Assembly (NCBI GenBank): GCA_963717525.1
Contig: OY970343.1
Coordinates: forward strand, 1,376,001 to 1,440,000
DNA length: 64,000 nt
DNA from: an uncultured Methanoregulaceae archaeon
GTDB lineage: Archaea > Halobacteriota > Methanomicrobia > Methanomicrobiales > Methanospirillaceae
Direction of reading: 5' to 3'
Part shown: positions 2,452 to 64,000 of the stretch, piece by piece
How positions within the stretch are numbered: the stretch's first letter is position 1
Layout: every line of letters begins with the position of its first letter
Notes under the pieces: model-generated
Told to the model about the DNA's origin: nothing
Databases searched by the model: none
The model's input: only the letters and a program-made list of their open reading frames with translations
Made by a program: the position numbers and the translations under genes

Positions 2452-3226
2452 ATGGTAAGAAAACCGGGGAAGATGTACAGGAACCTTGCAAAGAAGGCCT
2501 ATACACGGCGTGAGTACATGGGCGGGGTTCCCGGCAACAAGATTGTACAGTTTGAGATGGGAAACCTCTCCCAGGAATTCCCGACAGAGATTGACCTGAT
2601 TGTCGAGGAGACCTGCCAGATCCGGCATAGCGCCCTTGAGGCATCCCGTATCTCGATCAACAGGAAGCTCTTGAAGGATGTCGGAAGGACAAACTTTCAC
2701 TTCAAGGTCCGTGTCTTCCCGCACCACGTGCTCCGCGAGAACAAGCAGGCAACCGGTGCAGGGGCAGACCGTGTCTCGGAAGGTATGCGCCTTGCATTCG
2801 GCAAGGCGGTAGGGACGGCAGCACGGGTCGAGGCCGGGCAGATCATATTCACGGTTTATTCAAATGCCCAGTACCCTGGACAAGATCAAGGCCGCAATGA
2901 GAAACGGGGCCCACAAGCTCCCGACCCCATCCCATCTCAAGGTCCACACCATCAAGGTGAGCGGCAGGATCGTCGCAGCTCCGAAGATCGCCGGTGATAA
3001 GATCGCAGCACCGGTCAAGGTCGAGGCTGAAACCGAAGCAGTGGCAGCAGAACCGGCAGCGAAGGGTGCAGAGGCTGCAAAGGGCGCAGACCACAAGGGT
3101 GGTGCGCACAAGGGTGCTGAACCCGCCAAGGCAGAACCGGCAGCGAAGGGTGCAGAGGCTGCAAAGGGCGCAGACCACAAGGGTGGAAAGGCTGCCCCGG
3201 CCAAGGGTGGCAAGGACAAGAAATAA
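2452..3226 (+). CDS. rpl10e: 50S ribosomal protein uL16 (L10e) with Ala/Lys-rich C-terminal tail; one apparent +1 indel near 2875
   Basis: [11 protein letters not shown] and [17 protein letters not shown]; continues in ORF 2864..3226 (HKLPTP). Confidence 0.9.
3047..3186 (+). repeat. 56-bp exact direct repeat (3047-3102 and 3131-3186) within the uL16 tail
   Basis: gcagaaccggcagcgaagggtgcagaggctgcaaagggcgcagaccacaagggtgg occurs twice. Confidence 0.9.
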
Positions 3227-10510: not shown

Positions 10511-10583
10511 TACCCCCGACCAGATTCGAACTGGTGTCGCCGGATCCAAAGTCCTGCATGATTGACCGCTACACTACGGGGGT
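10511..10583 (-). tRNA. tRNA-Gln (TTG)
   Basis: ACCCCCG/CGGGGGT acceptor stem, CTTTGGA anticodon loop, ACCAG-TTCGAAT-CTGGT T arm; one mismatch in anticodon stem. Confidence 0.92.
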
Positions 10584-50704: not shown

Positions 50705-51829
50705 TTATAAAAGATATTCCAGCACCCTGGCCGGTTCGTAACGGAGCGTGATCACCCTGGTCCTGCCTTTCCCTCCCCGGTACTGGAGGTTGACCAGCCG
50801 CATCGCATCCATCTTTTTGACAATTTCATAGAAGCGGGTGTACCCGATGGGCACCTTCTCTTTGATGGTTTTGTAGACCTCGCCGGCGTTCATCTCTGCT
50901 CCCGTGGCGCTTATCGTGGCAAGTTCCCGGAGGATCCTGCTCTCTTCGTCCTTAAGCGTCTTCAGCGTATATTCGAGATGCAGGTACTTTGAGACCGCGT
51001 ATGCTCCGCAGATATCCTCGCGCCCGATGCTGCGCCGTGCGGCCCTTTCTGCGTTGAAGGCTGCCCGTTTGAGGAGATCGATACCCACCCGCAGGTCTCC
51101 GCTCTTCTGTGTCTGCTCCACGACGAGATCCAGCATCTCGTCGCTCAAAACCCCACTGAAAAAACCCTGCATCACGCGGGCCGTCATAATCTCCCTCACC
51201 TCGGCATTCCCATAGGGAGGAAAATAGATCTCGGTGGGGCGGAAGACCGAGGAGACCCGGGCATCCACCGCACGGGAGAGATCCACATCCGGGTCGCTGA
51301 TGATCACAATAACCCCGATGCGGACGCCGTCGTAGGATTCATGGGCCCGGAGCAGCGTGTACAGCACCTTGTTGAGTTCATTCTCGTAGAGAAGGTAATT
51401 GGCATCATCAAGTGCGACGAGCAATACACACTCCTCTTTCTGGAGGATGCGGGCGACCGCGTCAAAGACCTGCTTGAAGGAAGTTCCCGAAGAAGGCGGG
51501 AGATGGCCGGAGAGTTTCCGGTAGATCTGGGAGAGAATGGCAAACTTGGTATTGTCGATCTGGCAGTTGATATGGACCGGCACCAGTTTTTTTGTTGTCT
51601 CTTCGATCTCCTGAAAGAGTTTTTTGACACTGGTCGTTTTGCCGGAACCGGGCAGGCCTTTGCAGATCGTATTGAGGGGTCGTCCGCCCCGGAGCCCCGG
51701 CCGTATCTGGAACGCGAGTTCGCGCATCTGGGTGTCACGGAACTCAAACTGCTCGGGGACATAATCGATCTCGAATACATCGGGGTCGCGGAACAACGAC
51801 TCGTCCCACATCAGCAGGTTCTTTTTCAT
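50705..51829 (-). CDS. cdc6: ORC1/Cdc6-type replication protein
   Basis: DYVPE..FRD, GLPGSGKT, VALDD, FPPY, GDLRVGIDLL. Confidence 0.93.
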   Translation of the reverse strand: MKKNLLMWDESLFRDPDVFEIDYVPEQFEFRDTQMRELAFQIRPGLRGGRPLNTICKGLPGSGKTTSVKKLFQEIEETTKKLVPVHINCQIDNTKFAILSQIYRKLSGHLPPSSGTSFKQVFDAVARILQKEECVLLVALDDANYLLYENELNKVLYTLLRAHESYDGVRIGVIVIISDPDVDLSRAVDARVSSVFRPTEIYFPPYGNAEVREIMTARVMQGFFSGVLSDEMLDLVVEQTQKSGDLRVGIDLLKRAAFNAERAARRSIGREDICGAYAVSKYLHLEYTLKTLKDEESRILRELATISATGAEMNAGEVYKTIKEKVPIGYTRFYEIVKKMDAMRLVNLQYRGGKGRTRVITLRYEPARVLEYLL

Positions 51830-52155
51830 CGTTAGTACTCCATCTACGTTGCAAATAATAACAGCTCTGGTGACCGGTACCGGAGCGGACCGCGTAAAGA
51901 TCTGACCGGGGACCCCTTATCGCTCTGGAAGGATGAAAAAAAAAGAATATTTCGGAGGATAAAACGAAGATCTTCACTCAGGGCCTGGAGAAACGGACGG
52001 ATCTTGGTTTCTCCCTCTCGCAGGATATCCCCTCGATTATCAGGCTTGTCATTATCGAGAATAAAAAGCCGGGTCGGGTTCACAGGGTGAGCGGGGAAGC
52101 CTGAAGATCTGTTAAGATCTGACACCCCACAACGGTTAGCAAGCCGTATTCCTGA

Positions 52156-52353
52156 CTATCGATCCGTATAGGGCGTCAGTACGTTCAGGCGTGTCCCGCA
52201 GTGCCGGCAGGAGACCACCCTGGCATTGCGGAAATGATCCTGCGGCATCTTGTTGACAATTGTGCTCTCAGCGGCGCATGAGGGACAGGTGAACCGGATC
52301 ACGTATCCGGCTCTGGTGCCCTTGATCTCGGGATAGGATTTCTGGGCAGGCAT
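52156..52353 (-). CDS. Small zinc-ribbon hypothetical protein
   Basis: CPSC and CRHC pairs. Confidence 0.5.
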   Translation of the reverse strand: MPAQKSYPEIKGTRAGYVIRFTCPSCAAESTIVNKMPQDHFRNARVVSCRHCGTRLNVLTPYTDR

Positions 52354-52779
52354 TATCAGGATAATTGGTTTTGTTCTTTTGACCGGCCTCTCCTTTCTGC
52401 AGGAGATCCGGGCTGCGATCAAAAAAAGTCTTGCAGGGTACCTGGATGAGGACATTTCCCCGGCCAATTAAGGATGGCAAAACCGTTGATGAGATAGTAC
52501 TCTTGGTGCCATAGCAGATAGTAGTATGGAATTACTCCCTGAAGCACGATCGTGCAGCAAGATTCCCTATTCGAGGTGGCTCTGAGGAAAAGGGGATCTC
52601 CGTATGTCTTGCCCGTGGAACATTCCCGCGAGGATCCCCGTCAGGTAAGCCTGATGTTCCGCATTATCCCGAAAAGTACGGAGTGGGAAATTTCGCCGGA
52701 AAAATTTTCCGGAAAGGGTATACATTTTTTAACAATGCACAATTGTCATTCAATAAAAAACGGGACTTGGATCAGGGGG

Positions 52780-53049
52780 TCCCGGTGGGTTGGAGGAGAA
52801 GACGGCCACGGGATGTCAGCCGGAGAACAATCTCGCTGCTGGATTTCCCCCCATCAAGATAACGCTTGGAAAGAAGGACGCGGACCCGGACCGGATAGTG
52901 CTCTCGCTTCGGGCAGGATACAACGTGTGCACGACATGATTTATATGGCACCCTTGTTTATCAGCAACTGCCTGGAGGATATCAATTTGGATTGGGGTGG
53001 GCACAAATAGTTCGGGAGTTTCAAAGCTGATTTTTTCCATGGTTTCCAT
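52780..53049 (-). CDS. Small winged-helix-like hypothetical protein (possibly frameshifted near 52885)
   Basis: TPIQIDILQAV...SESTIRSG; alternative frame continues LSKRYL...LRLTSRG. Confidence 0.4.
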
Positions 53050-53306
53050 AAATTGTCCTGGTGATTTTTTTATTAAAAGCGCAGATGGTAGAGGATATTT
53101 GATCCGCCCCGGCGAATCACCATAATATTATAGGGCGTATGAGATGAAGTAACCATGCATGGCACGATCGATTTTTCCGCAGAGAACGTGAGCGCAGAGC
53201 GATGATCGGCATTGAGGAATTGCCGGAGATGGTGGAGCGCCTCATTTTCAGGAGAAACAAAATTTATCACTATGGCAATTTAACAATTAAAATTAAACCA
53301 TCTCCT

Positions 53307-53326
53307 GGCAGATGATGAAAGTTACC
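53307..53326 (+). repeat. attL core, 20 bp
   Basis: GGCAGATGATGAAAGTTACC, identical to 62126-62145. Confidence 0.92.
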
Positions 53327-53814
53327 GTATAATTTTAGTTGCAGATACTATGTATTTTAAGGCTTGATTTGAGCCCGAAATATTTACGAACTTTTCCTGT
53401 ATGACGGTGGAGATACTAAAACCGGCCTTTCTTTCACTTACCGCATACTTTTACCCATCGGCAGGGACTTTTGCCAAAAGAAGTGCCTTGGTGGGGCTTT
53501 ATTGACGGATAATTGCGGTTACAAAACGGCACGATCCCCGGGGGTTGTAATTGCTCCCCCAGGGAGTGTAAAAAATGCAGTAACGGTGGCGAAGCAGGGG
53601 TTCATCGCGGGAAGGTACCGGCCCGCTCGCCCCCGGTTACTGTTTGGCTGGCTTGCCGGTGCAAGGGAGATGGTTCCGGAAGTCTATCCGGTTCCGCATG
53701 ACTAAAACAAGACTCTTATAAACTTTAAGCACTTTAAGGGGAGGTTTTTCCCGTCAGTAAAAAACGGGTACCGCGGGCTCTGGCGTTCGTTACAGAACCA
53801 AGTCGTTCCCCTCA

Positions 53815-53864
53815 AAACATCCCACAACTAAAGTTCGTGGGCTTTCTGCCTGCTCTGATCGTAA
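53815..53864 (-). mobile_element. IS200/IS605-family end-like palindrome (remnant)
   Basis: TTAC-GATCAGAGCAGGCAGAAAGCCCACGAACTTTAGTTGTGGGATG hairpin resembles IS605/IS1341 ends; no tnpA/tnpB seen. Confidence 0.5.
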
Positions 53865-53996
53865 ACAGCCTGAACAGTCTGAACAACCGTTTTCAGATGT
53901 GGGCCCATTGAGAAAATAAGACTGGAAAGCCCGAAGGTCAATTAGGAAAGTTGAATAATATAACAGTATATATGAGGTGAATTAAGATGATGCCAT

Positions 53997-55157
53997 GTGA
54001 AGAAAATCGTTTTGGTTCTTCTATTATTGATAATTGGAATCGTTCAGATCGTTGGGGCATCCCCGGCCCCTGTTGTTGCGGATTTTACTTACACAACGGT
54101 ATGTGGATACACTTTTCAATTTAGTGATACATCCACCGGCAACCCAATCACATGGTATTGGAGTTTTATGGGGGGTAGCCAAGCTTCACCCGATCAAAAT
54201 CCTTACGTTTCCATAAATCAGGGTACGCAAACTGTAAGTTTAACAGTAGGTAATGGAACCCAGTATACGTCAACAATTAGTAAAACTGTCGTATCAACAC
54301 CCCCATCAGTTCCGACTGCAAGTTTTACTACAACTCCTTCATCCGGTACAGTACCCTTAACAGTCCAGTTTACAGATACATCATCGTCTCTTAATTGTCC
54401 CATAAACCGCTGGTCATGGTCTTTCGGCGATGGCTCGGGTAGTTCGATAAATCAAAAACCAACATATACATTCACTAAAACCTGTAATCCTAATACCGGT
54501 AATAGAACATTTCCTGTAACACTAATCGTTTATACGGGTGGTGGAACCCAAGCCACGACCACAAATAACGTCATAATAACTGCCCCTCCCGATCCAGTTT
54601 CTTCTTTTACTGCAAATCAGACCAGTGGGCCAGCTCCTTTAACAGTACAATTTACAGATACATCGAAGAATAATCCAACAACATGGGGCTGGAATTTTGG
54701 TGATGGGACTGGATCAAATTTACAGAATCCCCCCACACACGCCTATACCATTTCTGGCGTATATACCGTCACAATGCAGGCTTCGAGTTCCACTACATGT
54801 AATCCAACAAATCCTGCTACCTCAACAATTACTGTTCTCTCCCCACTTGCACCCGGAACAACAACCTCCCCGACACCCTCCCTTAATCAAACCGCGACGA
54901 TCACCACCTCAACGACTCTTCCACCGACAACGGTAACCGAACAAACAACCCTTCCATCTGTAACTATGGCTCAAACTGTAACCGCCACACCCTCGGGATT
55001 TTATTATACCCCAAAACCGACCGTCACGACAATGAAGGTATTCACGTCAATTCCAACCAGTACACCGACCCAAAAGTCTCCATTTGGAATAGAGTTTAGT
55101 ATTTTGGCGATTAGTGCCGCGATTCTAATAGTAAGGAGCCAATACCGGAAGCCATGA
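53997..55157 (+). CDS. PKD-domain cell-surface protein with C-terminal anchor
   Basis: Signal peptide, three PKD-like repeats (PLTVQFTDTS...WNFGDG), Thr-rich linker, TQKSP + TM + basic tail. Confidence 0.88.
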   Translation: MKKIVLVLLLLIIGIVQIVGASPAPVVADFTYTTVCGYTFQFSDTSTGNPITWYWSFMGGSQASPDQNPYVSINQGTQTVSLTVGNGTQYTSTISKTVVSTPPSVPTASFTTTPSSGTVPLTVQFTDTSSSLNCPINRWSWSFGDGSGSSINQKPTYTFTKTCNPNTGNRTFPVTLIVYTGGGTQATTTNNVIITAPPDPVSSFTANQTSGPAPLTVQFTDTSKNNPTTWGWNFGDGTGSNLQNPPTHAYTISGVYTVTMQASSSTTCNPTNPATSTITVLSPLAPGTTTSPTPSLNQTATITTSTTLPPTTVTEQTTLPSVTMAQTVTATPSGFYYTPKPTVTTMKVFTSIPTSTPTQKSPFGIEFSILAISAAILIVRSQYRKP

Positions 55158-55297
55158 GGATCGGGAAATGTCGTTCTTTTCGTTTTGCGGAAAATTTGCT
55201 GCCGGGATATCGGTTACGAACATGCTGCCGTAGAGCGACATAAATCACTCACATAAAAAAGGAAATTATTATAGTATACCCAAGAGAAGTATCACTT

Positions 55298-55660
55298 ATG
55301 TTTTGCCCGAATTGTGGTGCCGAGCTTCAATATGCAGACGCGGAAATCTGCCCCAAGTGCGGAATACGGATCAAGAGCCCCCCGGCGCCTGTCGGAATGA
55401 ATAAAGGTCCCCGTGTTGAGGGCGAAGAAATTAAAAGTACAGGGATCGCCGCAATTGCTTCTTTCATCATCCCGGGCCTCGGGCAAATTTATTGTGGTGC
55501 GATTGGTCGGGGAATCATGATTTTGATTGGCTTTATCATCGCATGTTTGATGATCCTTATTGTTATAGGGATTATAATTGCCCCGATCGTATGGGTCTGG
55601 AATATTTACGATGCGTACACAATGGCAAAAAAGATCAATGCCGGGGAGATCACAATTTAA
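55298..55660 (+). CDS. Zinc-ribbon plus TM2-domain membrane protein
   Basis: FCPNCG...CPKCG; SFIIPGLGQIYCG. Confidence 0.85.
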   Translation: MFCPNCGAELQYADAEICPKCGIRIKSPPAPVGMNKGPRVEGEEIKSTGIAAIASFIIPGLGQIYCGAIGRGIMILIGFIIACLMILIVIGIIIAPIVWVWNIYDAYTMAKKINAGEITI

Positions 55661-56116
55661 TTTTTAGAGGACTTGCGCCGGTTGGAGTGAGAAAAACGGA
55701 CCTTACCAGTTTTGCCGGGAAAGTAGTTGTTGGCGTATCCATAGCGATCGTACTGGCTTTTATCGCTCTGATTGCCTTGGCGGTCTTCTGTGTGGGCCTC
55801 GGGGCCGTTTCGTCAGTAACAAACCCTCATGTAGCGCAGGACACCCAGCAAGAGGTACCAACAATTACAGGAGAATATCAGCCACGCGCAGGTCGGGATC
55901 TCCGGTGCAGTCCAGAATATTACCGGCGGTTGACATCCTAAAACCCCATTTTTCTCAGATTTTTGTGGGAACGGGTAGGCCTAAAAAGGTGAAAATTCCC
56001 GGATTTTTATCTGGCCTCCCTGGCAGTATATAAAAATCGTTTTTCGCCTGTGAATCTAGATTATACGGGCTCCGATTTGGCAAATACTCTATGATATTGG
56101 CGTTATTTTATGCCCC

Positions 56117-56713
56117 TTACGAGGTGCAGCCCCATCCTTTCACTTGTTCCTTGATGGCTTCCCGCTCTGCCTGCGTCCATGAGATGTTAAAATAATGCCG
56201 CAGCGCCGTTGTTTCTGTGTGTCCCTGTGAGAGAACGATGTTGATTACCTTATCCGGGTAGGCTGCGAGTAGCCAGCTCTCCCACGTCTTCCGGCTCGTG
56301 CGGACCGTGATCCCGGTTGGGTTGCTGCTCTCCTCATTCCCTGGTAGTGCCTGAATACGTGCCCGCTGTGCCCACCGGATAAGGTTTGATTGCCAGACAT
56401 GGGGGGAGCTCGGGACAGAGGGATTTTTCAGATATTCCTCAACTGCGAGAAGCCCTTTATCGGACAGACATACATTCCGGGATATCTGGGAGGCCTTCGC
56501 TTTGCCGCTCTTGATCGTGATGGTCTTGCGATCCTGGTCGAATATCCCGGGGTTGTTTGTCAGCTGTTGAACTTCCGCTAATCGCAGACCGGTATAGAGC
56601 ATAAGGTTAAAGAGTGCCTTGCTTGACGGTTTCTCAATGACATCCCGGATCTTGTCCGCTTCAATGGGAGTAAATACCCGGCTTGAATTGCATGTGAGAG
56701 CGCTGCTTGCCAT
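56117..56713 (-). CDS. Short tyrosine recombinase (catalytic domain only)
   Basis: YTGLRLAE, TSRKTWESWL, SQGH, LRHY. Confidence 0.8.
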   Translation of the reverse strand: MASSALTCNSSRVFTPIEADKIRDVIEKPSSKALFNLMLYTGLRLAEVQQLTNNPGIFDQDRKTITIKSGKAKASQISRNVCLSDKGLLAVEEYLKNPSVPSSPHVWQSNLIRWAQRARIQALPGNEESSNPTGITVRTSRKTWESWLLAAYPDKVINIVLSQGHTETTALRHYFNISWTQAEREAIKEQVKGWGCTS

Positions 56714-57270
56714 AATAGATAATGGGTTTGTTAGTATTTAAAAGAGTATACTTTAAGATAGAACTATACCCAATATCTCTTCTATTTCTCTTTACTTTGG
56801 GAATAATCCAGTTTTGTAACACCGAGTAACACGAAAATGAAAAAGCGTATGCGTGAATAGTCAGGTTTCGTTTCTTGTGATCGAGTCTCGGGACCCTTGG
56901 CAGTATTACTTGTTTTAACAAAAGTATGCTTGATGTAAGAATATAATGCGCCGTTTTCATACTTCGGATAGGTACGATGATCCTGGTCATCAGTCGTTGT
57001 CAGAAGCGAGTTGTCGGAGGATTTTATGTATCTGAATGAAAAAGTTTCCGGTGATTAAAGAGGGTATTTGTTATTACCTCGATACTATCCTCGTGGTCAG
57101 GTACAGGGGGAATCACTGCATAGGGCACAGTACAGAGGGTAGGTCTTCAATTTACCGTTCTTTTCTGTATTATCACCCATTACCTGTCTGTTACCCTTAC
57201 CCATTCAGAGGCTATTACCTCTATTAATACCTTTTTTTATTATTATAAGAGAGAGAAGGGAAATGCTAAT

Positions 57271-57297
57271 GCATGGTTGCTTGCGCATGGTTGCTTG
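57271..57297 (+). repeat. Tandem 13-bp repeat in non-coding region downstream of rep
   Basis: GCATGGTTGCTTG at 57271 and 57285. Confidence 0.8.
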
Positions 57298-57386
57298 TAT
57301 ATACGGTTTTGGAAAATAGGGGTAATGGGGTATTAGCGTCGGAGAGGGGGGAAATATTAGGGGTATTGGGGGGGGATTGATGGCCC

Positions 57387-59714
57387 TCACTTCCTCAGCC
57401 AAAAGGTGTGTATGTCGTTTATGCCCGGGATGCTTTCCCGGGAGTATTCTAGTCTTGGTTCGTTCCCCATGAGTCCACCTTTGGGGTTTTGGAAAGTCCC
57501 TGCTTTCCCGCGAAGGGCTTTGTAGACGGCTTGTATTGTAAGCCCGGTGCTGTCTTGGATTTCCTGTGCGGTCTTATGTTTTCCATCCGCAAGACACTGC
57601 ATTACAACAGTCTCGTTCCTTAAGAAGCCCGGTGTTGTACTGTTAATCATCGGTTTGGAGTATGTCAGGAACTGGTCAATAGCGAGAAAATCGGCATCAG
57701 TGGTTGTGGTCCTGTTGCATAAGATTGCGTGCGCTTGTACCAGTGTCAAATACCGTTTAAATTCTCGAATTGGGATCTCATTGTCAATCGATTTATGGAG
57801 GGTCACGACATCAGGGGCGATCAAAGACCACGCAGCATAGATAATATCAAGGTCCGGCCCGATATCCGGGTGAGGTTCTTGGATAAAAGCGCGGATCTTC
57901 GTCATCTGTTCCGGGGTCCTGCGTACTTCAAGCGTCAAGAACCGGGACTCATCCTGCCCTTCGTCAGTCTCTTGTACCACGCTCTCGACAGCCGTGAGGA
58001 TCAGACTTATCCTGGCGGGGATATGCAGGTTTTTGGGGTCGTGGTTTACGACAGTTCCCCGGTCTACGCCGGTGAACCACGATGTAAGCATATTCCTGTA
58101 CAGCGCCGCAACGTTCTCAGAAAGAACCGTATCATCCGAAAAAACCAACATGCCTTCATGCAGATCCCCGATTTTACTGGCATGATACAGATACATATCC
58201 GAGAATGTCTTGGTTAAACGATCGGCCAGGGGAATAAATAGCAAGGACTTTTTTACACTGTCACTCTTGCCGCTCTGCGTCTGTCCGTTGACAAACAGGT
58301 GTATCCCGTCGCTGGCATTTAGAACGCGGATGTTGGCTGCCGTAAGGAGGATCCCCATGAGAATGTGTGTGTCGCCAAACCATACTTTCCCGAAGGTATC
58401 GTTACAATATTTCAAGAATCCCCCGCTCTCGTAGATCTTCCGGGCGGTTGTTATAGTCTCTGGGGACAGTTCCGGTGCCGGTGCCTGCTGATTGATAACA
58501 TCGGCCTTTTTAATGAGTGCCGCTGCTTTTTTCCCCTATATCTATATCCTTCATTGCGGCGGGTGCCGCCCCGGTACATTCACAGGAGTGTGCTCCCCTT
58601 TCACCTTCTCGACAGGAAAACCCGGCCGCACATGGCGGGCGGCCCTCCTGGAGAGTTGCGTGAGTTCCTCAACATCATCACGGTTGTTCTGCTTGTGCGG
58701 GGGCTTGCAATGCTCCCGGGAGAACTGCCATAGTTCGGCGAGGATGTCCTTTTCCTCATACCCGCACCGGCGCAAGGTGCAGGACATACATAAACAGTGT
58801 GTGGTTTCCGTTGGCCTGCCGGGACAGTTGTGTACTTCTTGCAGAATGCCGCAAGGATTGCCGCCGCTCTCTTCTCGGTCGGGATCTCCAGCTCGCTCTC
58901 TGGAAGGTTTGAATATTTTTTGATCTCCCTCTGGCGTTCCTGAGTTAAGGAAGACAGGTATTCCGTCAGGGCGTCTGGCTCGGCATTAACGACAGCGAGA
59001 TTGTGGAGGCCTCATAGAGGCTTGATTCCTGGGGCACTTTTCACGGGTGTTGCTGTAGGTTTGGGCACTGCTGACGACTTGGGGATTTCTGAAGCATTCT
59101 GACAGCCTCCTGGCTTATCAGGTCAAAGTCATCACAGCACAAGATGGATATGCCTCGGCTTGATGGATTTTTCCGCTGCCGCTGTCACGTAAGCGCCTCC
59201 CGGTATGCCAATTGGCGATTGAATTCCGGATCGCTGGTTGGGAGCGGGTTCCACAGGTCCCCGGTCATGATTATGAATCTCGGGGCACCGCCATAAATTT
59301 CCAGGCCCGGTACTGGGTTTGTCGGGTATTCTCTTCCTGATGCCCAGATCAAGGATATGTAGACCCGTCCCCGGATACAGACTTTTCGATGTATGCCCCC
59401 TCGCACCGTGAGACGATCCGCACTGCCAGCGGGGTTAGGTTCCCCCGTGGATCGATGCAGTGGTCAAGATCCAGAACCCGGAGCGGATAATCTGCGCCGA
59501 GCACGAACGCCGGGTGTGTTCCGATGCAGAACTCAATTGCCGTCAGAACTTCGGGTAAGGTCGCCCAGTCAATCGGATTGTCGCACCGGGCAAGCGTCCC
59601 CCGGACGGTCAGCGGGATCTTTTTCACCGATCCGTCTGGCTGGGGGGTGCACCGGAAGACGACCCACCGGCGAGCGCCCTTTAAGGGCTCCGGGATATTA
59701 TCAGAGTGGATCAT
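57387..59714 (-). CDS. Primase-polymerase + P-loop helicase + wHTH replication protein, broken by several frameshifts
   Basis: LDLDHC, YIEKSVSGDG, LEIY...RFIIMTG in consecutive frames; Walker A GQTQSGKS, Walker B VFSDD; C-terminal HTH. Confidence 0.7.
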
Positions 59715-59986
59715 GCCTCTTCCTCCCGCTGGAATTTGTTGATCGCGGCGGTCTCGTCCTCCATACCGGCGGTGATATCCCCGTTTTGGATACGCTCGGC
59801 GACGGTCCGGTCATCGTCAAGGAGATACAACCGCCGGATAGCGGCAAGTTGTGTGGGAGAGAGCCGGTCGAGGTCATCGTCTTCCCGTCGAAGAAGAGAG
59901 AGCATTTCGGTGCGAGTGGTCGGAATATCACCCGCGAACGGCGTGTAGGGCTTATCAGGCGTCCGTTCTTGTAACATGTCCAACAC
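59711..59986 (-). CDS. Hypothetical protein in rep operon
   Basis: Stop overlaps rep ATG (ATGA). Confidence 0.5.
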   Translation of the reverse strand: MLDMLQERTPDKPYTPFAGDIPTTRTEMLSLLRREDDDLDRLSPTQLAAIRRLYLLDDDRTVAERIQNGDITAGMEDETAAINKFQREEEA

Positions 59987-60149
59987 CTACCGGGGCCTGC
60001 CGCCCATCGTCGATTATGACCACTCCTTCTTCGCGCATGAACGCAAGCGCGACGCCATCAGGAATCCCGATTGAACGGCCCCAGCTGATGACGGCCCCGC
60101 GATGGAACATCGTCATTCCGGTGCCGTGGCTCTGAACTCCGGCGGTCAT
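59955..60149 (-). CDS. Small hypothetical protein in rep operon
   Basis: ATGA overlap with RHH gene, GAGGAGG SD. Confidence 0.45.
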   Translation of the reverse strand: MTAGVQSHGTGMTMFHRGAVISWGRSIGIPDGVALAFMREEGVVIIDDGRQAPVGVGHVTRTDA

Positions 60150-60298
60150 TCTGCGTCCTCCTCGCCGGGGCTCCTGAATTTTTCAATTAAACGGGTCACA
60201 ACGTCGTCGTACGTTTCATTGAACCGCCCGAGTTCGCCAAGGCGTTGCACTGTGCTTCTCTGAAGCGCGATCGTGGTTTTTGATCGTGTGTCCTTCAT
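60146..60298 (-). CDS. Ribbon-helix-helix (CopG-like) regulator, 50 aa, absent from ORF track
   Basis: Manual translation MKDTRSKTTIALQRSTVQRLGELGRFNETYDDVVTRLIEKFRSPGEEDAE. Confidence 0.7.
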   Translation of the reverse strand: MKDTRSKTTIALQRSTVQRLGELGRFNETYDDVVTRLIEKFRSPGEEDAE

Positions 60299-60427
60299 AC
60301 AGACTATAATTTCTCATTCCGCTTATAGGGCGGTTAAGATATAAGATAACTTAATCAAAAAAGGTATGTTTTAAAATAACCTTTTTGTGCAGGAAGTTAT
60401 ATCATATCATAATTCAAAGATATTAGT

Positions 60428-60892
60428 ATGAAACCCGATGCCCGTAAACGCAACTATGGATGTCTGACCCCCCTCATGCGTGAACATCTACAAACGAGAA
60501 ACAAGACAGAGCCAATCGACGAGAAAGAAAGGGACAACCGCAAACAATCTGATTTTGTAATAACACGTCACGCAAAACAAGCCTTGAAAGATCTTGCGCT
60601 TGTAGCTGCTGCATATCCGGAAAAAAGAACCCAAGATATTTTTTCAATCGATGATCTAACAACTTTGGTAAGTGCAATCATCTTTAAGAATGGAAGTGAT
60701 GTCACCAATCACGGCCCGTATTACCATGTTCTGATTGACGCCATTATTGCTGCAATGAATTCATCCCCCAACGGAGAGATCACACATCTGAAATTCCATA
60801 TTGAACCCCAGTTGTACGGTTCGAAGAGCGGCAGACCACTGGATTTAACCAACACACTCACAAAACGGATTTCTGACCCTGTGAAAAAATAG
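60428..60892 (+). CDS. Hypothetical protein, divergent from rep operon
   Basis: 154-aa AT-rich ORF convergent with integrase. Confidence 0.6.
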   Translation: MKPDARKRNYGCLTPLMREHLQTRNKTEPIDEKERDNRKQSDFVITRHAKQALKDLALVAAAYPEKRTQDIFSIDDLTTLVSAIIFKNGSDVTNHGPYYHVLIDAIIAAMNSSPNGEITHLKFHIEPQLYGSKSGRPLDLTNTLTKRISDPVKK

Positions 60893-60902
60893 GTTATATT
60901 TT

Positions 60903-62076
60903 TCATTTTTGTATCTGTCTTTGGGGAGTTGTACGGGCACTTTCTAATAAATCCGCCAACCTCCGGAGTTTTGCCGGGTCGGATGCAAAGCGCCGGACAT
61001 CGTCTTCTTCGTTCGCTGCCTCTTCAGTAAGAGACCTGCCGCACCTGATACAGAATTGAGCCCCGGGTACATTGACGGTTGAACAGTGGGGACATTGTAC
61101 CGGCTTCATGCTCGGACCTTTTGGCCGTCCTACACGCGCCACTCCCGCTTTCCCGAGAAGGATATCATCAACCCGATCATTGGACAGATGGGTATAGGTT
61201 GCCATCATGGGCGTTGCGATATTGCCCCATGCCTGTAATTTAATCACGCTCTCGGGGATCTCTTGTGCAACCATAGCAGTTATCCGGCTATGCCTGAGGA
61301 TGTACGGGAACACTCCTTTAAGGCCCGTTGCCTCTGCTGCGGTCATTATAATTTTGTCAAAATACTGACGGGACAGTATTTTACCCGTACCCGTGACGAA
61401 TACCCGCGCGTCCCCTTCCGGAGTCCCCGGGTGATAGTCCGCTTTCCATGCTGCCAGATATGGGGCGTACTGGATAAACCGAATGTACCGGGGTTTGCCG
61501 GTTTTCTTTGACGTATTGAAAACCGCGCCGTACTGGTCGAACTTTAACTGTTCCCATGTGGCCTCCCTTACTTCGATGGGTCTTAATGCCCCCTCATACA
61601 TGAACGCAATGAGAGCCCGGTCCCGGGGGTTCCGACAGGACCGGATCATCTGGTCTATTTTTTCCTCCGGGATCATCTGCGATGCAGTCTTTGTTGCCTT
61701 GTCTGCCGCCGGCGGTTTGATGCTGTCCAGTTTCTTAACGCTGATGGTAGTGTTGTATTTCTCATCTATGAGCCAATGGCAGAACTCTTTGAGGTAATAG
61801 ACCCTTAACCGCCGGGTGTTTTGCTTCCATAGAGGTTCCACGGCATTGATCGCTTTGATAATGTCCTGAGTCGTACATTGTTTGAAGGGGCCGGTCAAAT
61901 GAGCAAACTTTGAGAGACCCTTTGAGGTTACCAGGGCGGTGGATTCGGATATGTGCTTTGTCGCTTTCCGCTCTTCGCAGAACTCACAGATGAGATCAGC
62001 ATTCTCCCGGGCAGAGGATCCCGGCCTTTACCTGGCTATCCAGATATGAACCGGCATTGATGACCTTGTAAGGCAT
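60903..62076 (-). CDS. int: Site-specific tyrosine integrase with C-terminal zinc ribbon; apparent indel near 62007
   Basis: RDRAL..YEGALRPIE, KKTGKPR, PYILRHSR, AWG, TYTHL, CPHC..CIRC; N-terminus MPYKVINAG...ENADLICEF. Confidence 0.9.
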
Positions 62077-62125
62077 GAATGATAATTGGGAGTAAAAGAA
62101 TACATAGTTACCCCCTCCAAAATTC

Positions 62126-62145
62126 GGCAGATGATGAAAGTTACC
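62126..62145 (+). repeat. attR core, 20 bp (5' end of the sRNA)
   Basis: Identical to 53307-53326. Confidence 0.92.
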
Positions 62146-62182
62146 CCCACTGAAGACCGTGATGATGCAGGGGACTGATGCC
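62126..62182 (+). ncRNA. Box C/D 2'-O-methylation guide sRNA
   Basis: GGCA/TGCC terminal stem; C ATGATGA 62131-37, D' CTGA 62150-53, C' GTGATGA 62159-65, D CTGA 62175-78. Confidence 0.9.
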
Positions 62183-62200
62183 ACCTTACTTTTAAAAAAT

Positions 62201-63352
62201 TCATTTGAACAGGAACGACAGGAATTCTGTTGCTTCCATCGTTCCGAACATCCCGGATTGTGCTTCTTTCTCGGTGAAATGCATGCACCCATCTGTGCCC
62301 TTTCCGGTCACCACAAAAGGCACCGGTTCACGGGAATGCGTCTTGATCCGGATTGGCGTCGGGTGATCCGGGAGGACGGCTACGATTCCGTCAAACTTTT
62401 CCCGTATTGCACCCACAACCCGGTCTACATTCTCGATGGCCCGCACTTTTTCCTCAACGCTCCCAAGGTGCCCTGCCTCATCCGGGGCCTCGATGTGGAC
62501 ATAGACAAAGTCCAGACGTTTGATCGCATCGAGAGCATACCGTGCCTTTGCCATGTAATCCGTATCCAGGTATCCCGTGGCGCCGGGGACTTTGATGACC
62601 TCCATCCCGGCACAGCGGGCGATGCCGTTCAGGAGATCGACAGCCGATATCATTCCCCCCGTGCGGTTATATTTTTGGGAGAACAGGGGAAATGCCGGCC
62701 GCCGCCCACCGCTCCACGGCCAGATCTGCGTCGCCGGGGGCTTGCCCACTTTTACCCGTGCCACGTTTACAGGGTGCCCGCTGAACACTTCGCGGCTCTT
62801 TTCCATGCAGGACAAAAGGAGATCCGCATCCCCGTTCCTCGGCAGGTAACCTGCGATCGGTTGTCCCACGATATCATGGGGAGGTGTCGAATCCGCTGCC
62901 GACCCCCGGGGAACGACAACGAGGTTACGGTAGCTGACCCCGGCTTTTACGACAACTTCAGGCACTTTTGGGGCGAGCGATTCAAAGAGCGCGGCACCTT
63001 CGACGCTGGAGATGTGACCTGCGGAAAAATCCGCCATGATCCCGTCCCTGACGGTCACAATATTGCACCGGTATGCAATATCGGCTGGTGCAAGGTCGAT
63101 TCCCATGCTCAGCGCCTCGAGAGGTCCCCGGCCGGTATAGTACTTCTCCGGGGCGTAACCGAGGATGGACATATTTGCGATATCGCTTCCTGCCTCGAAA
63201 CCGTCGGGGATCGTGTGCAGCATGCCGCACGCGCCTTCCCTCGCCATCCGGTCCATGTGCGGGGTCCTGGCATATTCAAGGGGAGTTTTTCCCCCCAGGT
63301 GCGGGATCGGCTCATCCGCCATGCCGTCCCCGAGAATCAGGATACATTTCAT
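62201..63352 (-). CDS. apgM: Cofactor-independent phosphoglycerate mutase (archaeal type)
   Basis: GDGMAD, KTPLE, GSDIAN, YTGRGPLEA, APDEAGH, DHPTP. Confidence 0.93.
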   Translation of the reverse strand: MKCILILGDGMADEPIPHLGGKTPLEYARTPHMDRMAREGACGMLHTIPDGFEAGSDIANMSILGYAPEKYYTGRGPLEALSMGIDLAPADIAYRCNIVTVRDGIMADFSAGHISSVEGAALFESLAPKVPEVVVKAGVSYRNLVVVPRGSAADSTPPHDIVGQPIAGYLPRNGDADLLLSCMEKSREVFSGHPVNVARVKVGKPPATQIWPWSGGRRPAFPLFSQKYNRTGGMISAVDLLNGIARCAGMEVIKVPGATGYLDTDYMAKARYALDAIKRLDFVYVHIEAPDEAGHLGSVEEKVRAIENVDRVVGAIREKFDGIVAVLPDHPTPIRIKTHSREPVPFVVTGKGTDGCMHFTEKEAQSGMFGTMEATEFLSFLFK

Positions 63353-63373
63353 GATAGTGTGTCCCGGAAACCC

Positions 63374-64000
63374 TTACGCTCCGTCAAGCATTGCCCTGAC
63401 GGCAATCCTGACGCTTTCCCGTGAACCGACCTGAGGTTTCCAGCGCAGCGCCTTTATCTTATCAATCGCGAGCAGCATCTTTGGCACATCGCCGACCCAC
63501 CCGCGTTCGCCCCCGGTAAACCGGAATTTTGTATGGGGGAGGTGCATCTCCTCCGTGACGATCTCCGCTATGCTCTTTACATCGATCCAGTCCTCGGATC
63601 CAATATTGAATATGTTGACCCTGCCCCGGGCGTGCCCGACGGCAAAGAGCATGGCCGCCACGCACTCGTGCACTTCAAGGTAGGATTTTGTCTGTTTTCC
63701 GTCGCCAAGGATCTCAAGTTCAGCGGGGTTCGTTTCAAGTTTATGGATAAAATCGGTGATCACCCCGTGACCGCTCCGGGATCCGATGATATTGGCAAAC
63801 CGGAACATCCATGCGCTCATGCCAAACGAGTGGCAGTACGCGGAGATCAGTGCCTCACAAGCGAGTTTGCTCGCGCCGTAGACAGAAATAGGTTCAAGCG
63901 GAGTATAACTTTCAGGTGTCGGGATAACCTTCGCATCACCATAAACTGTCGAGGTCGAGGTGAACACCATCTCGGGAATGTTGCAGTGGCGCATCGCTTC
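63374..64000 (-). CDS. NAD-dependent epimerase/dehydratase (5'-truncated by window edge)
   Basis: TSTSTVYG, YGASK, RFANIIG, GWVGDV. Confidence 0.9.
   Translation of the reverse strand, partial: EAMRHCNIPEMVFTSTSTVYGDAKVIPTPESYTPLEPISVYGASKLACEALISAYCHSFGMSAWMFRFANIIGSRSGHGVITDFIHKLETNPAELEILGDGKQTKSYLEVHECVAAMLFAVGHARGRVNIFNIGSEDWIDVKSIAEIVTEEMHLPHTKFRFTGGERGWVGDVPKMLLAIDKIKALRWKPQVGSRESVRIAVRAMLDGA

Follow-up and report, generated by a model that had tools for sequence, protein, structure and literature searches.

Archaeal integrases have been recorded at tRNA genes, in intergenic regions and in coding sequences. One survey of 68 targets comprises 39 tRNA genes, 15 intergenic sites and 14 coding sequences (PMC6563490), and the accessible sections of another account contain no mention of a small RNA (sRNA) gene as a target (PMC8371274). 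Described here is an 8819-bp plasmid-like element in a 64,000-nucleotide (nt) stretch of the genome of an uncultured Methanoregulaceae archaeon (contig OY970343.1, positions 1,376,001 to 1,440,000, referred to as the window), which is bounded by two copies of the first 20 nt of a box C/D sRNA gene. The interpretation favoured here, to which we assign a probability of roughly 0.9, is that a tyrosine recombinase inserted the element site-specifically at the 5' end of that gene, a predicted guide for helix 69 of 23S rRNA.

Among described systems, the 'classical' tRNA-targeting archaeal integrases of the SNJ2, pNOB8 and Met26-2 types share with this element an integrase gene that lies whole beside one attachment (att) site, a short direct repeat, a restored target gene and the coupling of integrase subgroups to one target (PMC8371274; PMC5861418). 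The SNJ2 family itself is delimited by at least 30% identity over 60% of the length and by hosts among the Halobacteria (PMC8371274). The present element differs from the classical type in that its target is a box C/D sRNA gene entered at the 5' end, its integrase is divergent from that gene, and a Tyr replaces His in the HxxR motif. The pTN3-like integrases of Thermococcales resemble it in having the host attachment site (attB) in the 5' part of an RNA gene; at pTN3-type sites that gene loses its upstream DNA and, once restored, is expressed from element DNA, as is probable here. They are, however, suicidal, with att inside the integrase gene, and use tRNA targets, whereas here the gene lies whole at 50 bp from the core (PMC8371274). 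The split gene typical of the suicidal SSV, pTN3 and pT26-2 integrases was not found at this type of site, where the integrase starts 50-53 bp from the core and lies on one side of it. In bacteria, prophages occupy small non-coding RNA genes such as ryeB and ryeE (PMC3603311) or ffs and csRNA genes (PMC12540744), and non-coding RNAs make up 13.5% of RNA targets in ProBord (PMC13626063); the prophage targets are regulatory or signal recognition particle RNAs, and no archaeal modification guide is named in the accessible sections. The Haloferax Gm1950/Gm1909 guide and Pyrococcus sR41 have the same predicted helix-69 target, and the accessible part of their description does not present them as integration sites (PMC2584109). 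Tandem integration arrays, integron cassettes and tycheposon-like cargo elements are similar in their repeated use of one site and in their integrase-free units with nutrient and stress cargo; the units at this site differ in that most end in a common AT-rich promoter-like motif directly before the sRNA core.

A C/D sRNA gene as attB is not named in the accessible sections of PMC8371274, PMC5861418, PMC6563490, PMC7994747, PMC13626063, PMC12540744, PMC3603311, PMC2584109 or bioRxiv 10.1101/121921, and was not found in the literature searched, which lacked most subscription papers; the supplements of PMC2584109 and the ProBord site tables also lay outside it and may bear on priority. PMC2841640 proved unrelated in the part accessible. 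The element is well supported as one of a known kind at a target class not found in the literature searched, with an integrase clade of its own and a probable promoter swap upon insertion.

The boundaries of the element are precise. The sequence GGCAGATGATGAAAGTTACC occurs exactly, and 8819 bp apart, at the attL and attR core positions (Table 1), as a sequence-only reading of the window had stated, so that direct repeats stand at both ends of the element; across the whole genome (2,288,003 bp, single contig) these are the only two copies at up to three mismatches, which removes the concern, raised by the same reading, that the 20-mer might be a dispersed repeat. The GC content of the element is 48.8% against 54.5% for the genome, and 101 of 1140 equal-sized windows are equally low. 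Four of 21 listed sequencing runs were examined as contigs, one of them (X16) being RNA; runs with small shares were passed over, X16 excepted, and depth was not taken as copy number. In two of the four, from two studies, near-identical strains have an empty site that joins position 53306 to 62126 with 20 bases in common. The join is spanned in X10 by a single 8778-nt contig (depth 24.3) whose flanks show no substitution relative to the window in 890 nt to the left and 1475 nt to the right, and it recurs in X6 (depth 6.1). Both occupied junctions are present in X1, possibly the sample from which the genome came. The proposal that relatives lacking the element would join 53306 to the sRNA is thereby borne out and, together with homologous integrases at the same sRNA, supports the sRNA gene as attB. 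Since the flanks are near-identical and the occupancy differs, gain or loss of the element has been recent.

Excision had also been expected to restore the locus between cdc6 and apgM. In 16 of 28 relative loci the sRNA lies 99-231 bp from the cdc6 start, whereas attL lies 1478 bp away here, so excision would restore the site of this strain but not the ancestral one: about 1.3 kb of extra DNA outside the element would stay behind. This DNA is also present in the empty strain and is therefore an older insertion than the element.

The right copy of the repeat is, as had been recognised, the start of a canonical C/D sRNA, with boxes in the order C-D'-C'-D, a length within the archaeal C/D range of about 50-70 nt and a GGCA/TGCC terminal stem that closes the RNA. 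Box C (62131-62137) is followed by the D' guide (62138-62149), box D' (62150-62153), box C' (62159-62165), the D guide (62166-62174) and box D (62175-62178). A strict C/D pattern recovers two RNAs in the genome, this sRNA and the tRNA-Trp intron. Its best Rfam match is snoPyro_CD (34.3 bits, E 5e-6), below the gathering score, and the Rfam sR41 model (RF01126) gives 9.2 bits (E 4.3) against a threshold of 54. A 14-nt piece of the core is present in 94 of 102 genomes of the genus and 198 of 401 of the order. Among 46 distinct sRNA copies, collected by a pattern that fixes part of their sequence, the boxes and D' guide hardly differ, whereas the D guide is variable; in the terminal stem 83% of cells are paired and three of six pairs have changed on both sides, a result equalled by 2 of 500 shuffles. 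The D' guide pairs over 10 bp with helix 69. By the fifth-nucleotide rule its target is C1:2247907, which precedes the first loop U by six bases, as Gm1950 does (PMC2584109), so that G1909 of 23S rRNA (E. coli numbering; Gm1909) is the predicted methylation target. A C/D guide for Gm1950 (E. coli 1909) has been predicted with homologues in 25 genomes, including Pyrococcus sR41 (PMC2584109). The genome encodes fibrillarin, and the sRNA is probably a guide for ribosomal RNA methylation.

An integrase clade is dedicated to this sRNA. Among 228 family genomes 13 match the integrase at E<=1e-80, with an identity of 68% or more in 11, and a 45-row tree groups 12 rows, one from another family (G145), with support of 99/95. 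In 11 of these 12, spanning three genera and two families, the sRNA core lies 50-53 bp from the integrase start, and attR carries the full sRNA in each of the 11 clade rows that have upstream DNA. The twelfth row, G023, is cut off by a contig edge, and on another contig of the same genome the integrase N-terminus adjoins the sRNA. The 33 rows outside the clade, about 30-44% identical and mostly flanking tRNAs, comprise 21 located after a tRNA 3' end, two before a tRNA 5' end and ten with no called target, and none has the sRNA; the closest Methanomicrobiales relatives, at 33-41% identity, sit beside tRNA genes. The association of integrase homologues with the same sRNA, suggested earlier as a check, is thus the rule in the clade. 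A set of 1.84 billion representatives at 50% identity yielded one full-length protein (75%) and one fragment (76%), the next being at most 49% identical. Matches at E<=1e-45 occur in 39 of 67 genomes of the same order against 1 of 333 others. The best annotated virus integrases are only 23-28% identical, in a comparison outside which the SNJ2 integrase itself lay. Of the catalytic set R-K-H-R-W/H-Y, residues R164, K190, R260, W282 and Y293 are invariant in ten rows, and the first His is replaced by Tyr, as described below.

Both att copies and the integrase lie on one contig in G084 (5818 bp), G099 (10068 bp), G120 (11565 bp), G170 (12950 bp), G145 (17170 bp) and G029 (about 37.6 kb). The complete elements have unrelated backbones, with a D5-type primase-helicase in G120, ArdC in G099 and G029, and a terminase in G170. 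In G099, G063 and G023 attL lies directly behind cdc6 and native upstream DNA, and in G029 a 6-bp terminal stem forms between the attL flank and the sRNA 3' end, as expected if the flank is the native 5' end that was displaced. A target switch from tRNA-targeting relatives is the probable origin of the clade, a direction that we infer because the tree is midpoint-rooted.

Several findings weigh against the favoured interpretation or narrow what can be drawn from it. The circle junction, which the sequence-only reading had expected along with the empty-site join, was not found in the four runs, for which contigs only were available and contigs drop rare forms, and a site with the order P arm, core, P' arm (the inverted arms are described below) was absent among the loci read from three pattern scans. 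The scan of genome contigs gave 56 matches, mostly chance matches in bacteria; 23 had a near-full core, four of these being non-archaeal, and eight of the near-full-core archaeal matches were re-read by hand. The metagenome scan gave 25 matches, six of them chance-like and none with a P arm before the core. Among viral contigs there were nine attL-pattern matches, none with the full core, and no integrase relative, so that these contigs gave no free virus form. All 12 of the clade loci have Tyr at the first His of HxxR, a change also seen in two of the long-branch sister lineages described below. In G064 the integrase adjoins the sRNA and no attL was found within five mismatches, and kin genomes are not independent. 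Core positions 7-19 are largely fixed by the search patterns, and their invariance therefore does not map the crossover. The D' guide has a second 10-nt match in 23S rRNA, and no convincing rRNA or tRNA target was found for the D guide. The sole RNA run examined (X16) has no contig over the sRNA or integrase, only over cargo; its short contigs over the PKD-domain gene were set aside as a sign of expression, DNA carry-over being possible. Finally, in this assembly the integrase is frameshifted and the primase-helicase region is split over three frames, with indels relative to short-read contigs.

The frame defects speak for one alternative, in which the element is real but dead, its integrase and replication gene broken by decay, and is absent from other strains by history only. 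The integrase frame opens with an ATG at 62076, 50 bp from the right core copy, and stops at 61996-61998 because of one extra base near 62006-62011 relative to eight of eight aligned relatives; the earlier placement of a zinc-ribbon tyrosine integrase inside the right copy accordingly holds for position and domains, while an intact frame is not found in this assembly. Integrases are also frameshifted or reduced to remnants in G099, G120, G022 and L153, and no circle was seen. Set against this, the X1 short-read contig over the integrase region (60332-63600) is one base shorter than the window and has one substitution in 3.3 kb; the difference fits an assembly error in the integrase but, as the gap is not located within the contig, is also compatible with real decay. 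In the helicase region the X1 and X6 contigs carry two to three gaps, as assembly errors predict, several relatives with broken integrases are also frameshifted in cdc6 or apgM, and the differing occupancy between near-identical flanks points to recent gain or loss. The frameshifts are probably assembly errors, and a dead element is unlikely in our judgement; this alternative in any case concerns activity only and is compatible with the assignment of the target.

It is far less likely that the integrase recognises a DNA site that overlaps the sRNA by chance, such as a conserved site beside cdc6, the RNA gene being incidental. The short cdc6-sRNA distance in 16 of 28 relative loci would suit such a site, and attL-like sites with a P' arm and foreign left flanks (L095, L098/L159, L120, L210) indicate that secondary sites occur. 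The duplicated 20 nt, however, are exactly the 5' stem, box C and guide start of the RNA, integration is also found where cdc6 is 0.8-3 kb distant (this window, G084, G145, G170), and the sRNA is complete at attR throughout the clade rows described above. The attL-like sites themselves (L095/L212, L098/L159, L120, L210) are probably secondary integration sites, and that of L210 is inverted and lies 100 kb from the sRNA on the same contig. As for a chance or assembly duplication of part of the sRNA with no att site, partial sRNA duplications do occur in archaea (bioRxiv 10.1101/121921), but this explanation is refuted for practical purposes by independent short-read contigs with both junctions and the precise empty join, and the same att layout recurs in three genera.

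Site-specific integration into the guide gene, as favoured here, is accompanied by a pair of inverted arms. The left arm, P', one half of an inverted repeat, ends in ACTATGTATT at 53347-53356 and is conserved in an alignment of 24 attL sites, and the right arm, P, starts with AATACATAGT at 62099. In nine of nine integrase-bearing pairs the arm starts 26-30 nt before attR, its inverse ends 50-55 nt after the attL start, and the centre of the dyad falls at core position 12-13; in this element pairing of the 41 outer positions is best at centre 12, with 23 paired, and the next best centre gives 18. Each arm holds a copy of one core half, guide-like or 5'-stem-like, and eight of ten pairs have one of each. 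In 8 of 20 pairs attL and attR are not identical, the differences falling at core positions 1-6 and 20. The P arm is also, at 62103-62115, a perfect 13-nt complement of helix 69 (C1:2247904-2247916), 3 nt beyond the guide's own match, which may be chance, as the arm copies the guide, or a hint of the arm's origin. Extra core copies elsewhere were considered as att sites: second copies in G089, G270, G240, G348 and G204 were rejected as they have no arm, and those in G301 and G371 look like contig overlaps.

In the mechanism proposed from this arrangement, the circular element would carry its attachment site (attP) as a 77-bp dyad, with the first 20 nt of the sRNA between two inverted arms, and the integrase would bind half-sites on either side of core position 12-13, placing strand exchange in or just after box C (about positions 9-15). 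The element copy would replace the sRNA 5' end, giving a complete sRNA at attR and leaving a 20-nt stub with the host upstream DNA at attL. This duplication of the 5' end cuts the full sRNA off from its upstream DNA, and the sRNA must probably be transcribed from element DNA. The likeliest promoter source would be the AT-rich P arm, acting both on the sRNA and on a leaderless integrase mRNA: its AT-rich start lies 27 nt ahead of the sRNA and, for the opposite strand, 30 nt ahead of the integrase ATG, spacings that we take to be TATA-like. With such spacing both ways one site could drive both genes and be occupied by the integrase, and we lean slightly towards the P arm as a candidate TATA box for both. 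An RNA gene that is short, invariant and present once, and whose 5' end is quasi-palindromic, would offer an integrase what tRNA genes offer. The sequence-only reading had contained neither the inverted arms nor the loss of sRNA upstream DNA, nor the frameshifts or the integrase-free units described next.

The same site is occupied by units that have no match to the clade integrase. Among 108 genomes of the genus the core is present in 88, in two or three copies in 13. Ten att-bounded integrase-free units were found (G108, two in G116, G117, G009, G120, G021, G363, G360 and L147), 1.1-7.0 kb in length. Open reading frames (ORFs) picked from seven of them encode Kdp, Amt/P-II/GlnA, ferritin/peroxidase, flavin reductases, sulfate permease and phosphatases. 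A P' arm stands at the start of the units, and at the end of most is an AT-rich motif of 46 nt, in which a TATA-like run precedes the core by 40 nt. The ten members of this motif, which were picked by eye and are kin of each other, all beat base shuffles in leave-one-out comparison at p<=0.001, and by eye the motif is unlike the DNA upstream of the 53 tRNA calls of the genome. The flank that precedes attL in the window, and the sRNA in the empty state, scores 8.0 in the leave-one-out profile against a shuffle mean of -26 (p 0.0005), and equal scores are reached at 50 genome sites under the genome background; the flank may act as a promoter.

Two origins can be considered for the integrase-free units, decay of elements with repair of the promoter, or mobilisation in trans as cassettes; the two tandem ends in G116 and the common end in G360 and G363 lean towards the second. 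A two-tier system can be suggested tentatively, as a doubtful extension, in which the integrase comes from autonomous elements, cassettes are moved in trans and accumulate in tandem, and promoter swaps set helix-69 methylation. If this were so, a cassette would consist of a P' arm at the left, a promoter module and the sRNA 5' end at the right, and nutrient or stress cargo between them; each insertion would give one of the few methylation guides of the cell a new promoter, and mobile DNA, possibly through the integrase on the P arm, would set the methylation of this ribosomal helix.

If the favoured interpretation holds, island finders keyed to tRNA genes would miss sRNA-targeting elements, and guide RNAs that have escaped annotation may lie at att sites classed as 'intergenic' in other archaea. 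The clade would exemplify a target switch of an integrase in nature, its tRNA-targeting relatives being 35-44% identical, and would link mobile DNA to rRNA modification through promoter replacement. The sRNA core, short and conserved, could also be used by genetic tools in Methanomicrobiales as a landing site.

Table 1. Features of the element and its surroundings, in window coordinates.
Feature	Position	Strand	Basis or remark
cdc6/orc1 host gene, left landmark	50705..51829	-	Pfam Cdc6_lid/Cdc6_C
Extra DNA of about 1.3 kb outside the element, bounds approximate	52030..53260	.	unmatched in relative loci; covered in empty-site run X10
AT-rich promoter-like flank, before the sRNA in the empty state	53261..53306	+	weak member of cassette-end motif
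attL core	53307..53326	+	copy of sRNA first 20 nt: 5' stem, box C, 8 nt of D' guide
Left inverted arm P'	53331..53356	.	conserved after attL in relatives
Cargo: secreted protein with three PKD domains and Thr/Pro-rich tail	53997..55157	+	72% paralog at C1:401485-402667
Cargo: zinc-ribbon membrane protein	55298..55660	+	domain scan
Second short (198 aa) tyrosine recombinase, catalytic domain only	56117..56713	-	PF00589, E 6e-8; homologue in G120 element
Primase-helicase replication region, three frames in this assembly	57387..59714	-	PHROGs primase matches
Four small ORFs (91, 64 and 50 aa on -, the last DUF7557; 154 aa on +)	59711..60892	.	ORF list, domain scan
Zinc-ribbon tyrosine integrase, about 390 aa in intact relatives	60903..62076	-	Phage_integrase and C-terminal zinc-ribbon domains
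Right inverted arm P	62099..62124	.	between integrase start and sRNA
attR core	62126..62145	+	exact repeat and junction contigs
Box C/D sRNA, 57 nt	62126..62182	+	boxes, terminal stem, guide match
apgM phosphoglycerate mutase host gene, right landmark	62201..63352	-	domain scan

The genes between the repeats are of plasmid type, as had been proposed: a primase N-terminus (PHROGs primase, E 2e-14) with an adjoining helicase-like ORF, and the second short tyrosine recombinase, possibly a multimer resolvase. Capsid and conjugation families had no match among the element ORFs scanned. Loose contig ends and joints from other contigs cluster at 53440-53700 and 55850-56060 in all three DNA runs, which suggests short non-coding modules common to related elements. 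A 116-bp segment at 55818-55933 is 78% identical to C1:1267786-1267900, just downstream of tRNA-Phe, and is possibly the remnant of a related element.

Among related integrases with no tRNA nearby, no other C/D RNA was found close by with a regular expression or, at 11 loci, with Rfam (no matches). Four of them (L185, L068, L055 and L111) are long-branch sisters of the sRNA clade without a tRNA nearby, two of them having the His-to-Tyr change, and an Rfam scan of the first three found no RNA near them, L111 lying outside that scan. A second small clade (L060 and L152; support 100/100) is divergent at the 5' end of tRNA-Arg(CCG), another site of the 5' type, and the L152 integrase at this tRNA lies within 5 kb of cdc6 and an sRNA attL. 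The genome itself holds three more integrases of the wider family (about 38%), at C1:56351-57406, 311717-312634 and 1319539-1320582, one beside tRNA-Thr, one beside tRNA-Asp (with stops) and one without a tRNA nearby. The 37.6-kb att-bounded stretch of G029 (contig C60; L048, L196) contains, between element genes, a host-type sulfur and cofactor block (thiI, metX/metY-like, SepSecS-family, nadA, thiF and thiC), which may be captured host DNA, a rearrangement or a misassembly. At gathering scores the only Rfam match in the window is a tRNA; tRNA-Gln(TTG), on the minus strand at 10511-10583, is unrelated to the element. An exact tandem repeat with a period of 84 bp occupies positions 3047-3190.

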